From Hormiphora californensis (Eukaryota > Animalia > Ctenophora), in NCBI GenBank assembly GCA_020137815.1, contig CM035356.1, forward strand, positions 5,332,001 through 5,396,000: a stretch of 64,000 bases of DNA, written 5' to 3'. Shown here one piece after another: positions 1 through 54,200 of this stretch (positions are counted from its first letter, which is position 1; each line of letters starts with the position of its first letter). The notes beneath the pieces were generated by a model. It was not told where the DNA came from. It saw only the letters and a program-made list of their open reading frames with translations, and made no database searches. The translations under genes were made by a program, and so were the position numbers.

Positions 1-3000
1 CCGGTCAGGTTCGCCCCGATAAGGTGGCCGCTCATGGTGGTAGTAGTTGTTGTAATCGTAGCCGTAATTACCACGCCTCCGGTAGGAATTCCTGGGTGGT
101 GGCGGGGGTCCTGGTTCGTATTTCCGTTTTTCATAACTCGATGACGATGACGATCGTGAGGGGGGTGTTGGGATGACAGATTTAGGTTTCTGCTCCTTCA
201 CTTCCTCTTTACTCTCCTCTTCCTTCTCCACTGGTACTGGGGTGGGTTCCGCCTCTTGTTCCTCCACAATCCTTGTTGGAGTCTCCTCAACGATCACCTT
301 CTCTACTGAGGTCGGTACAGGTACAACAGGTGCAGCAGGTTCTACTGGTGTTGTTTTCTCTGGCAGTGCCGGGGATACTTTAGTCGGGCTTGGCTTCATA
401 CTATCGGGGAGGGTCTCCTTTTTGCCACTTCGAGCTGATATCGCCGAGGTGTACTGCTGGATCTGGGCCAGGGATTGTTGCTGCATGTGTTGCTGTACCG
501 CAGGAGGGAGGAAGCTACCACCACTATACTTGCTGGAACTATTGTTAGAGTGGCTGTTGCTCCTGACATCGGGCATCCTGTGCATCCTTCCATCTCGGGC
601 TAACTTCACCCTCGGCCTACTTCCACCTGCACTGTGTTGTTGTTGTTGATGGTGGTGGGCTGCTGCCACTGCGCTCTGCTGCATCTGCTGGGTAAGCTGT
701 TGTTGTTGTTTCGCTTGTTGCTGTTGCTGCTGGAGATGGTGTTGTTGCTGGGGGAAGTGTTGCTGCAATTGTTCCTGTCGAGGAGGGGGAGGAGCGGTAG
801 GGTGACTGGGAAACATGACGTTGGGAAGTCGGAACTGCTGCTGGCCCATTAGACCTGGAGAAAGAGAAGGATAGTGTTAGAGACAGATGCAAGATAATTA
901 ATTCTTAGACGTCCCACCTCCAAGTCAACCCCCGCCCCCCTCTCCCTACCCCCTCCCTCTCCTCACCAGCCCTACCCCCTCTCCACCTGCAGTATTGATT
1001 GAGGACACCCCCGTCCCCCTCTCCCTACCCCCTCCCTCTCCTCAGCCCTACCCCTCTCTTCATACCTGCAGTATTGATTGAGGACACCCCCGTCCCCCTC
1101 TCCCTACCCCCCTCTCCTCACCAGCCCTACCCCCTCTCTTCATAGTTCATACCTGCAGTATTGATTGAGGACACCTCTGTAGGGTGTGGCATTATCTGGG
1201 GACGTGTTCCAATAGGCTCCTTATCAAAGGCAGCTTTGTATCCCATACCCATTGCACCACCATTTTGTTGCTGCATCATTACTTGTTGTAGCAGCTCTGG
1301 GAATAATTGGGGTTAATTGGGGAATAATTGGGGTTAATTGGGGAATAATTGGGGTTAATTGGGGAATAATTAGTTGTTCGCAACAGAAATAAAATGACGT
1401 GGTGCGAGCCACACACAACACATACCCGGTTTGAACATTGGGGGTCGGGGAGGCATCTGGTGGTGGTGATGTCCCATAGGCCTCATTCCAACACCCATCA
1501 CATTAGGAGCACCCGGGTTGAAGGGTTTGGCATCCAGATGCTTAGACATATCCGACTGGAGGAGTATATTCTCCTGGGGCTGTAGTTTGTAGTACATTTC
1601 CTGGGGCGTCACCATCCTGCGAGAGTGTGTGTTAGATGGGAATAGGAGAGATCAGAGGGGGGATCAGATCAGTGGTGGTAGGAGACTGGAGAGTGGTGCA
1701 GATGGAAATATAGGGACACAGAGAAGGGAAGATGTCACGAAGGATTTAACGGTGAGAAGTCCCTTTTTAGGTACAAGTAAACACGTAAACAAAACACGTA
1801 CCCTCGTTGGTAGAATAGATGTTGACTGGAGAGAGCACTCTGGGGAGCCTTGTGCATACTCTGGGTAAAAGACATCATTCCCCCTGAGGGGTCCAAGGCA
1901 TCAAACGACCCTTGAGGGCTGTTATACAATGCACCCAGTTTCGGACTGTTTGGTTTCTGCCCGAACGGAGAAAACGGGTTCATTTGCCCGGGTATGGGGC
2001 TCATAGAGGGCGAGGCGTAGCTGTGGGGCGTGGTGAACTGACTGAATAGGTTCAGGGTTTGCGGGTTGGAGGCCGGGTAAATCTTGTTGGGGGAGATCCC
2101 ATAACTTTTGAAGAGTTCGTTCGTTGGTCGACCCAGATTGGAGAGGTTTGAGGAGGTCAGGTGAGCACCGATTAGTGGCACTTGGTTACTGTTCCCTACT
2201 GATACTGAGGAGAGAAGAGGTTAGGAGTGTGGGGAGAGAGAAGAGGTTAGGAGTGGTTTACAAAAGGAGAAGGGGTCAAAATAATACCACAATACCGAAA
2301 ACGATGTATTGGGGTCCGGTTGTATGATTGTTTGATGTTACTGGGGTCCGGTTGTATCACAATAACATCAAACAGATCATCAACAGAACTTCCTTACCTC
2401 CCATTTGGTGGGGTGACGGCATGATGTGATGTCCTCCATCGGGCCCAGGTGGTCCAGGTTGTTGGGTGATGAAGTGGGGCAACTGGAGGGGCGGCTCGTT
2501 CCTCAGACCAGGCGAGTTCTGGAGGCTGTGGATCAATGGAGATCCCTGCATAAAGAATTGGCTAGTCTCAGGTGGTGCTCCACCAATCTCCCTCAGTTGA
2601 TCGGTTAGGGACATCACACTGGTAGATGGGATTGTTGGACCTGACTCCTCTACCAGAGGGAGGGAACGGACTGCTGGGGGTGTCGTTTGGGTTGAAGTCT
2701 CTGCAGATATCTGACCAGGAGATTTGGATACTTGGTCCCGTTCCACAGCCTGGGAGGAGTGGTATTGCTCTCTCTCACTTTTTATTTTCACTTTTTTGTA
2801 TGATGATGATGAAAAGAGGGGGAAAGCTCAAAGCTGTAAAATAAAGTGAGAATTGATATCAAGTGGATAACTGCTGCACAGGGACGATCATCTTACCTCT
2901 TCAACAACAGCATGTTCACGAGCTTGTGGAAGACTTGACCCAACAACATTAGGAACTACTACTACGGTGGGCTCCAGAGCAACCAACGATTGAAGACTTG

Positions 3001-51286: not shown

Positions 51287-54200
51287 CTATAGGAAGTAGT
51301 CGGGTGTTCGTCGTGTCACTTGGGGCTCTCCACGTCGTGGTGCACTATCAAACTGCAAACTGGGGAAGGAGAGAAGAGGGTTAGTAACCGTTAGTAAAAC
51401 TGGAGGGGGTGGGTGGGTAGTTAAACTGGGGAGGGAGATAGAGGTTAGTAAAACTGGGGAAGGGGGAGGGAGGGGTTAGTAATACTGGAGAGGTGTTGGA
51501 CGTGCGGTAGTAAAACTGAGGGGAGAGGGTGGTCAGGGGGGGGGGGGGGGGTAGTAAAACTGGGGAGAGAGAGGGGGGTTAGTAAAACTGGGAGGGGTGG
51601 GTCGTAAAACTGGGGATAGAGGTTAGACAAACCCCAGACAAGCCGATGGGAGGGGAGAAATGAGTGGAATTGAATTAACAGCCCCCAATGTGTGTGACGT
51701 CACAGACTCGTGACGTGCCAGAAAGTGCCATTTTCATGATGCAATATACACGCAGTTTTGAGTTTTGACTGCCAAACACACACACACACACACACACACA
51801 CACACACACACACACACACACACACACACACACACACACACACACACACACACACACACACACACACACACACACACACACACACACACACACACACACA
51901 CACACACAGCTATGACGCACCTTTCACATTGTTCTAGTTTGTCAGGCACTGACTGTTCACTGTACATTGTACAGAGTGTACATATCGCGCACCCCGCAAG
52001 TACGGCCCGGTGCGAAGAGGACGGTCTTATATGAGACAAGTTCTAGCTAGTGTTATAGCTAGACGTCATTGTGTGTGATCTAATATCAAAGCCTAACATT
52101 AGGTCACACCTCTCTTGACTAAAAACCAGTTTATTGTTTCTCATGAGAGAAAAACAACAAAGTTATCACTTATATCAGTCACGTGATATAGAGAGATGGG
52201 CCGATAAGAGATTTGTCTAGAATGCAGTATGTGTCAGGGGAAGACCGATAGTTTTATATTTAAAGGTAAAGCAAGGTTAAGTGGATGAAAGGGTTCCATT
52301 AGTTTGATTTATATTTTATACCTTAAAGAGAGAGAGGGTGCTGCAAGGCTGCTGAGCATTATGCTATTTTAGGCATCCGAGGAAGTGATATTATATTATA
52401 TATAACCACGTGTCGAATTGCATAATTATTGTCAAAAGTTAAAATCACATTACGTAACCTGTATAAGTTAAATTCAACGAATGATGGTAATTTAAAATGT
52501 GACACTTACAAGTTATATTTTAGTCCATCATCTAATTCCATGATTGCGGCCTGGTTACCACAGCGGTAACAGTAGTTAGGCGCACTAAATATCGTCACCA
52601 CATTCTTATCGTGACACCAGTTATACCCCTGGGGGAGAATTGTGATTTAGGGGGAGAATTGTGATATAGGGGGAGAATTAGGATTGAGATTAATAGGGTT
52701 GGGATTTAGGGGGAGAATTGGGATTTAGGGGGAGGATTGGGATTTAGGGTAGCAGCGAAATAATTGGAATTTCTATTTTTGCGTGGAGAGAAATGAGGTT
52801 GGGAAGGTAGACAGTTAAATCTCTAGATAGAGACTCACTAACTAATTAACTAATTAACTAATTAATTAATTAATTACCTCCATAACCAGCTGATGAGCTC
52901 GGGAGATAAGAGTTAGACCATTAGAGTGGTTGAAGGTCTCAGAGATGTCCTGACCGAAGGTGTATCCAGCACCCCGAGGCGAGATACCCCAGCCACCCCT
53001 ATCATCAGGATCTGACCACAAGAGATCACACATTGGACCTTCGTGGGGGACCTCCTGGAGCCGATCCAGGAACCGGATGTGGTCGAGTGTGTCAATGGAG
53101 GGCGACAATCCACCGTGAAGGGCAAATATCTGGGTAGAGAGAGGGAGAGTGAGAACTTCATCAAATATCATAATCTATCTTGAAATATATAATGAATAAC
53201 ACTGGAGATCATCATCAAATCAATGTTATTGTATAAGCGAACCTGATTATCAACTAGGGCCGTTAGTGGTAGGTAGTCGAAGAGGTCAGTGAAATATTTC
53301 CAGACGTTAGCATTACCATACTTCCGTAAACATTCATCATAAAAACCGTATACCTAGGGAAGGACAATTTAATTAATTGACTTACTAATCGAGTGTAGTT
53401 ATCAAGAAATTAACTTTTCAATCGGGTCATCACTTTAGTAATCATTTATTTTCAGTTCATCGCGGTGGGGGATATATTGCGACAGGTTCTGCCGTTCTAT
53501 AGAGTAAATGGTGACGAGATGCTTTAAATATCGAGTGATGAATATATGTGTATGACGTAAATAATGAATGGAGAGAGAGAGAGAGAGAGAGAGAGAGAGA
53601 GAGAGAGAGAGAGAGAGAGAGAGAGAGAGAGAGAGAGAGAGAGAGAGAGAGAGAGAGAGAGAGAGAGAGAGAGAAAGAGAATACAGAGAGTAAGAGAATA
53701 CAGAGAGAAAGAGAATACAGAGAGAAAGAGAAAATAAAGAAAGAGCTCTCTTGAAGCGCACGTCTCTATTTAAAAACCACGGTGCAGCAATTACACATGC
53801 AGTGCCATGTTGAGAATGAGTGGATGCACCGAAAAATGTGAAAAATAACAGGTGACAGTTCTAGATTGTGAGATAGATGAGATACAGGGAGAGAAAAAAG
53901 ACAGGGAGAGAAAAAAGACAGGGAGAGAGAGAGAGAGAGAGAGAGAGAGATAGAGAGAGAGAGTGAGAGAGAGAGAGAGATAGTGGGAGGGGGAGAAGAA
54001 CGACAGGGAGAAAAGACAGATAGCCGATAGAGTGCAATGAAGATCATGCCTACATACACACGCGGTTGTGTAGCAAGCATCTAATGTACTTCTTCTCTCC
54101 CTCTCTCTCTCTCTCTCTTTCTCTATTCTCCCTCTCTCTCTCCATGGGAATATATAATGTAATTTGCAGTCTGCTCAGTATACACTGTTTTGTGCAGTGT

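Follow-up and report, generated by a model that had tools for sequence, protein, structure and literature searches.

Tandemly repeated exon-intron borders in three ctenophore genes resemble the mirage minisatellites of amphioxus

Results

Three gene models and their splice junctions

We analyzed a window of 64,000 nucleotides (nt) from Hormiphora californensis (contig CM035356.1, positions 5,332,001 to 5,396,000), in which tandem arrays made of pieces of exon-intron borders lie at the splice junctions of three genes. The PRRC2 (BAT2) gene occupies positions 1..11721 of the window on the minus strand; its 13 modeled exons, assembled by hand, give 1835 stop-free codons from 11721 to 1, with the start not found and the 3' end outside the window. 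The PACS gene (13108..47969, plus strand) has 17 exons and the gene for the catalytic subunit of PP2A (PP2A-C; 51287..55141, minus strand) has 7, with complete open frames of 721 and 312 amino acids plus stop, respectively. All 34 introns of the three models have GT-AG borders, and 4 of the 11 exons scanned had Pfam matches (BAT2_N, C2_PACS_N, Pacs-1, and Metallophos). The PP2A model aligned without gaps to the protein P0048 over residues 37 to 312 (257 of 276 identical), and the PP2A junctions that carry arrays are therefore fixed. Together with two joins seen in RNA, the open frames and the ungapped PP2A homology upheld the assumption of the original prediction, made from the letters of the window, that these boundaries are the real splice sites.

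The closest proteins were models from Pleurobrachia bachei, P0001 being 100% identical to PP2A exon 5 and P0121 97% identical to PACS exon 14; judging from these matches, the source animal would thus be a cydippid ctenophore close to P. bachei. Metagenome scans for relatives were negative, with 0 of 398 pattern matches confirmed for PACS exon 9 and 0 of 193 for the large PRRC2 exon, and none of the 57 candidates from a homologue search with PACS exon 9 proved to be one. P0122 and P0123 were ruled out as homologues, being unrelated repeat proteins.

Arrays at exon-intron borders

Arrays were present at 16 of the 68 junctions (5 of 24 in PRRC2, 9 of 32 in PACS, and 2 of 12 in PP2A), and 52 junctions had none. 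The GT or AG itself is repeated in 11 arrays, 4 of donor type and 7 of acceptor type, and 9 arrays hold at least 5 exon bases, with exon bases per unit ranging from 45 down to 1. The arrays named in the original prediction were all found at their places, including the 11 that repeat the splice dinucleotide. Its view that junctions are amplified systematically did not hold, as only about a quarter of them carry arrays and 25 of 41 intronic arrays touch none. From locus to locus the consensus units vary in length and sequence, arrays occur at 5' as well as 3' boundaries, and each unit matches its own junction only. A transposon-derived repeat family was rejected because of this match and because the transposons in the same introns are separate. 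Junction arrays occupy 15,333 of the 34,862 nt of the PACS gene.

The donor-type arrays have 4 sites in PRRC2 intron 12 and 9, 2, and 3 sites in PACS introns 2, 8, and 9. In PRRC2 intron 12 (915..1180, minus strand), units of 79 to 87 base pairs (bp) hold about 28 exon bases plus GT, with the real donor at 1152, copies at 1065 and 986, and a decayed copy at 917. The array of PACS intron 2 (13442..13626; this and all other PACS arrays are on the plus strand) has nine 20-bp units of 15 exon bases plus GTAAG and its real donor at 13457. PACS intron 8 starts with 2.2 copies of a 43-bp unit (16354..16449), the first donor of which, 16375, is used in an RNA contig, and PACS intron 9 starts with three copies of 30 to 37 bp (27908..28010). 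Because of the duplicate in intron 8, the 26 nt at 16375-16400 read GT...TACTAAC AG and stand before a 17-nt copy of the exon; at this length they are probably too short for splicing.

The acceptor-type arrays comprise 303 recognizable sites in PACS intron 8 and 2, 6, 11, 31, and 24 sites in PACS introns 9, 11, 12, 13, and 15, as well as 8 in PP2A intron 6. The array of PACS intron 8 (16482..27683, 34 bp in about 330 copies) is by far the largest, and its last acceptor, 27667, is used in an RNA contig. PACS intron 9 ends in a 66-bp duplicate (28561..28641), intron 11 in a decayed array (30070..30247), intron 12 in an array of 31-bp units (30515..30883), and intron 13 in 31 copies of a 74-bp unit with about 45 exon bases (43271..45537). 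The claim that acceptor arrays repeat the start of the exon was borne out for most of these but not for two. The 33- to 37-bp units of PACS intron 15 (46525..47376) are copies of an intron 3' end (branch motif, pyrimidines, and AG) with 1 identical exon base, and the decayed 22- to 47-bp units of PP2A intron 6 (51357..51621, minus strand) hold 3.

Three further arrays consist of branch motif and pyrimidines and stop at the acceptor, with copies that lack the AG: a 21-bp unit in 3.5 copies at PRRC2 intron 11 (1296..1373), a 26-bp unit in 2 copies at PRRC2 intron 9 (2207..2255), and a 19-bp pyrimidine-tract unit in 6 copies at PP2A intron 5 (52631..52749), all on the minus strand. Among the other repeats predicted to abut junctions, all of which are present, the 11/22-bp array at 3107..3227 (minus strand) begins 3 nt inside the donor of PRRC2 intron 7 and contains no junction copy, and that at 52840-52876 belongs to an AT-rich 4/8-bp microsatellite (52833..52876, minus strand) behind the donor of PP2A intron 5, which is of low complexity and was excluded from the counts. 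A weak duplicate of the PRRC2 intron 3 donor at an offset of 27 bp (8358..8401, minus strand) was absent from the original list and may be due to chance.

In PACS introns 8, 12, 13, and 15, the core units are homogenized; diverged units lie at the intron-interior end of these arrays and of that in PRRC2 intron 12. Seven internal copies are in frame and free of stops (27965, 28564, 30150, 30183, 30207, 47268, and 51425), and the donor at 13477 paired with the AG at 13820 also keeps the frame; the prediction had allowed only two such copies, 27965 and 28564. Every other in-frame internal site in the giant array (101 sites) and in the 74-bp array (10 sites) runs into a stop.

The giant array of PACS intron 8

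The 34-bp unit of the giant array consists of 17 exon bases, CTAAC, a C-rich tract, and CAG. Tandem Repeats Finder counted about 330 copies over 11.2 kilobases (kb), with 303 recognizable sites and 258 identical units, and CTAAC and YAG are intact in 296 of 302 units. The intron measures 11.3 kb, of which only about 70 nt are not repeat. Deletions are frequent in the block at 20703-21960, where 187 bases are deleted, 17 inserted, and 8 substituted (0, 2, and 0 in a control block), and the block likely represents unpolished long reads; because of this block, the exact length of the array is unsure and the figure of 330 is approximate. Contigs from runs X3 and X5 pile up on the unit, with summed depths of 161,047 and 17,743, whereas single-copy bins have depths of tens to hundreds (these depths are not copy numbers), and the giant array is therefore present in short reads. 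Recursive or micro-exon splicing through the GTACCT in the unit was rejected, as the piece would be 11 nt long and shift the frame and as the RNA contig joins directly.

Sites used in RNA and variation in copy number

We compared contigs from 4 of 18 listed runs with positions 27600-31400 of the window, a stretch within PACS. The RNA evidence on outermost sites is one contig of run X8, from a marine metatranscriptome, and contigs drop rare forms. This contig (depth of 3) spans 27665-27876 and differs from the window at 8 of 212 letters, two of which are common to a second haplotype in X3. Its loose 5' letters match the end of exon 8 in a form unique to the stretch before the first donor, 16375. 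Since the end of exon 8 thus stands next to 27665, the first donor is joined to the last acceptor across what are 11,292 nt in the window, and the claim that the spliceosome takes the outermost copies stood in the one informative contig. A second X8 contig joined 28755 to 29841, as modeled, and run X7 gave no exon cover in positions 27600-31400. A further X8 contig (depth of 2.4; 28729-30391) carries the end of exon 12, 16 unknown letters, the end of exon 10, and the start of exon 11, which is either a back-splice or a chimeric contig.

Copy number differed between samples at one array, that of PACS intron 12. A contig of run X5, a different sample and by our guess DNA, runs from 30615 to 30858 and omits 30616-30857, that is, 8 of the 11 acceptors, with 8 other letters; X5 likely carries a short allele of this array. 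A contig of X5 also skips a high-copy element at 28806-29419 in PACS intron 10, a presence/absence polymorphism.

In the P. bachei model P0121, translation continues through the intron ahead of PACS exon 14. The first 12 residues of P0121 have a unique placement in the window at 35309-35344 (4 of 36 bases differ; the next best placement has 10 differences and the mean is 20.4). Behind them come 27 nt that match the branch and pyrimidine portion of the 74-bp unit, and then the exon. In the window, 10,148 nt separate this anchor from the real acceptor, with a TTAA-flanked foldback element and the 31-copy array between them. P0121 thus has one junction where the window has 31, although it may also be the collapsed assembly of an array. 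The foldback element, of about 7.8 kb (35373-43213), ends about 60 nt before the 74-bp array and is missing from the P. bachei model. A second copy of its termini is nested at about 40227-41628, head-to-head 32-bp arrays lie within it, and its termini appear to resemble those of Kolobok-type elements.

Enrichment at junctions

Arrays were detected without reference to the annotation (period of 10 to 120, low-complexity units removed), and each was collapsed to one unit and placed at random; the test covered the 34 introns of the three genes and left out the genes for TFIIE-beta, a short-chain dehydrogenase (SDR), and a nested Sushi-domain protein. The window held 47 arrays, of which 41 lay within the 34 introns: 13 spanned a junction, 3 abutted one, and 25 were interior. 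Comparison with random intronic placement, a check named beforehand and here run within the window, gave 16 of 41 spanning or abutting arrays against 5.1 expected (P value = 1 × 10−5). The excess was also seen when arrays were placed within their own intron (16 versus 9.4, P value = 0.003, with 0.003 to 0.014 across settings) and when the count was limited to the outermost 100, 150, or 250 nt of each intron, which discounts transposon-filled interiors (16 of 22, 23, and 26 versus 8.6, 7.4, and 6.7, P values of 0.001 to 1 × 10−4; P value = 2 × 10−4 for the 150-nt zones). It was present in all 12 settings (P values of 1 × 10−5 to 0.009).

The result was weak for units that hold exon: those with at least 5 exon bases numbered 9 against 3.6 to 6.2 expected (P values of 0.007 to 0.13 with the main detection setting, and up to 0.2 with the loosest). 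A null in which intron length was capped at 300 nt with all interior arrays kept showed no excess (P values of 0.13 to 0.63); we set it aside as inconsistent and used matched end zones instead, and the outcome depends strongly on the null. The junction excess is about 2- to 3-fold, and much of it comes from arrays that stop at the junction.

Large arrays away from modeled junctions (31481-33256, 49912-50068, 60966-61324, and 62371-63452, with units of 18, 22, 32, and 163 bp) show a general tendency to make minisatellites, and strand-skewed minisatellites occur away from junctions as well (31481, 36592, 49912, and 60966). Blind detection found no array in the stretch 53221-59635.

Sequence context and unit anatomy

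Acceptors with arrays were richer in C than those without (0.49 versus 0.34, 10 versus 24 introns, P value = 0.01) and differed in their longest C run (P value = 0.004), both in post hoc comparisons. Seven of the window's 10 canonical G-quadruplex motifs lie inside junction arrays. A branch-like motif was found in 9 of 10 acceptor units with a relaxed pattern, and strict YTAAY close to the real acceptor was not commoner at array junctions (6 of 10) than at others (14 of 24). Acceptor units start at the branch motif or a few bases before it in PACS introns 8, 12, and 13, PP2A intron 6, and PRRC2 introns 9 and 11. Short repeats occur at unit ends: ACAGGATCAC (10 nt) at 16354/16440, AGT of the donor consensus at 27908, and ATAAC at 30874. 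Collapsed introns have a median length of about 200 nt. In each intron with an array, the donor end is unrelated to the acceptor end.

Neighboring genes

The TFIIE-beta gene (55150-56592, minus strand) lies immediately upstream of PP2A on the same strand and has no junction arrays. The SDR gene (56805-58770, minus strand) is in two halves, split by a 332-codon frame (57448-58443) without a Pfam match that, by eye, resembles a protein of the type of open reading frame 1 of long interspersed nuclear elements. PACS intron 13 contains a nested antisense gene (33274-34313, minus strand) that has a Sushi domain as well as an exon of 179 residues lacking any Pfam match.

Discussion

The arrays are of a known kind, the mirage minisatellites, now found in a ctenophore, and are notable for the phylum, their density, and the 11-kb acceptor array. 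Mirage minisatellites were reportedly described by Canestro and colleagues in 2002 in the Adh3 gene of amphioxus, where somatic length instability is also said to occur. They are documented in the amphioxus globins BflGb6 and BflGb9 (Ebner et al. 2010, PMC3087553) and in PGBD5 and troponin C (Pavelitz et al. 2013, PMC3902484). According to the available passages of these papers, mirages share with our arrays the copying of exon-intron borders, the presence of donor and acceptor types, several arrays per gene, unit lengths (10 to 160 bp there), copy-number differences between haplotypes, and less homogenized edge units; mRNA is normal there, and one RNA contig agrees here. What differs is the host, the scale (about 330 copies in 11 kb here versus 3 to 6 for BflGb6), and the additional class in which branch-plus-pyrimidine units run only as far as the AG, and the same passages give no enrichment test such as ours.

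In humans, Borensztajn et al. 2006 (PMC1557585) describe donor arrays in F7 intron 7 (a 37-bp variable number tandem repeat), 6-16, CBS intron 13, LMNB2, and PDGF, and demonstrate that the most upstream donor is selected. As in the F7 repeat, the first unit lies across the exon-intron border and there is polymorphism, here at one array; the most upstream donor is used in F7, and one contig agrees here for 16375, with two copies. The F7 type is on the donor side and at single loci, whereas here the arrays are dense and those at acceptors outnumber those at donors by 10 to 6. The statement of the original prediction that no description of this as a genome-wide system was known is therefore not supported, given the amphioxus mirages, which were suggested to be a general phenomenon, and the human F7, CBS, 6-16, LMNB2, and PDGF cases.

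Splice signals that are duplicated in tandem and concealed by splicing also occur in UBC and VCX3A, whose introns consist of tandem units with dual-specificity AG/GT sites (Duan et al. 2024, PMC10809524), and intron gain by duplication goes back to Rogers 1989, as cited in PMC3087553. A unit of the UBC type acts both as donor and as acceptor, and intron length is there a multiple of unit length; our arrays lie at one end of older introns whose two ends are unrelated, and a UBC-type origin was rejected. The genome paper on this ctenophore family reports many intronic indels (PMC8527503), and the word "minisatellite" is absent from its main text. Our literature search, for which most subscription papers were out of reach, turned up neither a report from ctenophores nor a genome-wide test of enrichment.

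We favor, with a probability of about 0.6, the reading that these are mirage-type minisatellites, in which border pieces were copied head to tail. Ordinary slippage or microhomology repair is the likely source of the copies, which probably persist without function since it is the exon-proximal copy that the spliceosome takes. A seed duplication of 19 to 87 bp at or across a junction would start each array, as the unit anatomy suggests, and short introns together with C-rich acceptor tracts, G-rich on the other strand, may favor such seeds; the short repeats at unit ends would be the trace expected of slippage or microhomology repair. A duplication would survive only if the exon-proximal site remained complete, and such a filter would account for the branch motif that acceptor units carry and for the full GTRAGT-like site of donor units. 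Among donors, the first may win through the order of transcription, and among acceptors the last is probably picked through cross-exon pairing with the next donor, the exon being short. Splicing errors would be cleared by nonsense-mediated decay, nearly all internal sites being frame-breaking. Arrays would then grow and shrink by unequal exchange, with edge units escaping homogenization, as the polymorphism and the diverged distal units suggest.

Tolerance alone gives no junction excess, because purely intronic duplications are tolerated too, and in this respect the idea that lenient splicing accounts for the pattern fell short. The excess must be supplied by sequence bias, by splicing-linked breaks, or by the choice of window; we take unstable C-rich tracts in short introns as the likeliest source of the excess at acceptors. 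Several observations weigh against the mirage interpretation as we propose it. C-richness may be a result of array turnover instead of its cause, and it leaves the AT-rich donor arrays (13442 and 16354) unexplained. Seven arrays end within −6 to +4 nt of a junction against 1.5 to 2.4 expected (P values of 0.0006 to 0.007), a surplus not expected from plain slippage. The window was selected because it shows the junction-array pattern, and it offers three genes, with PACS holding 9 of the 16 arrays, and the outer sites are seen in a single X8 contig of depth 3 whose source allele may lack the array. Finally, the choice of the last among about 300 identical acceptors is unexplained, because no order rule is known for acceptors: in PMC6783452, tandem donors follow a first-come choice and tandem 3' sites show no preference in human cells.

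A minisatellite-prone genome, short introns, and the choice of window might produce the pattern with no real bias toward junctions. This is unlikely, though it would account for the 25 of 41 intronic arrays that are interior, for the expected share climbing to about one third when intron ends alone are counted, for the nonsignificance of exon-containing units under tight nulls (P values of 0.06 to 0.2), and for the freedom from arrays of the TFIIE-beta and SDR genes, which were not in the test, while PACS alone has 9 of 16; the excess of spanning and abutting arrays in all 12 settings and under the within-intron null speaks against it. We consider it rather improbable that breaks or RNA-templated repair at nascent RNA held by the spliceosome seed branch-point-to-exon duplications. 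The 2- to 3-fold junction excess, the surplus of array ends at junctions, and the acceptor units that begin at or just before the branch motif would fit, as would the housekeeping type of the three genes, which are likely expressed in the germ line. The start near the branch motif is equally predicted by the survival filter, however, no exon-exon joints were seen inside arrays, and the excess is weak for truly exon-containing units. A reverse transcriptase stopping at the lariat would exclude the branch A; the units include it and at least 1 base upstream, and lariat-stop reverse transcription was rejected because the breakpoints are located at the branch motif or upstream of it. Of the predicted preference of duplication for junctions, the excess in three genes stands, and no evidence was found for an origin in R-loops or RNA templates. 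The broader proposition that splicing marks DNA genome-wide for branch-point-to-exon duplication, that a strict cross-exon rule makes the spliceosome skip hundreds of perfect acceptors and pick the last, and that introns grow mainly by copying their own ends is slightly more doubtful still.

Retention of the splice-signal arrays as decoys that tune output (through delay, decay-coupled dosage, or in-frame peptides) appears very improbable. CTAAC and YAG are kept in nearly all units of the giant array, seven internal copies are in frame, and extra donors are used in the human 6-16 and CBS cases (PMC1557585), but the intact signals follow from youth, given the 258 identical units, most old arrays are decayed, copy number differs from sample to sample, and the intron 13 array is single in the P. 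bachei model. That the arrays are artifacts of assembly is hardly credible. The deletion-rich block does resemble an unpolished long-read segment, which touches the exact copy number only; the existence of the arrays is established by the short-read contigs piling up on the 34-bp unit, by the real variant series and decay among units, and by contigs crossing the small arrays.

These results extend mirage minisatellites to ctenophores and provide an extreme natural test case, with about 300 identical branch-point/acceptor units of which the last is used in one transcript. Such arrays have a practical consequence, in that they mislead assemblers and gene predictors. Since order explains the choice of donors but not of acceptors in human cells (PMC6783452), alleles of different length would help to decide between cross-exon definition and first-AG scanning. 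Should the excess at junctions persist across the genome once composition is matched, splicing-linked mutation and a route of intron growth would be indicated.

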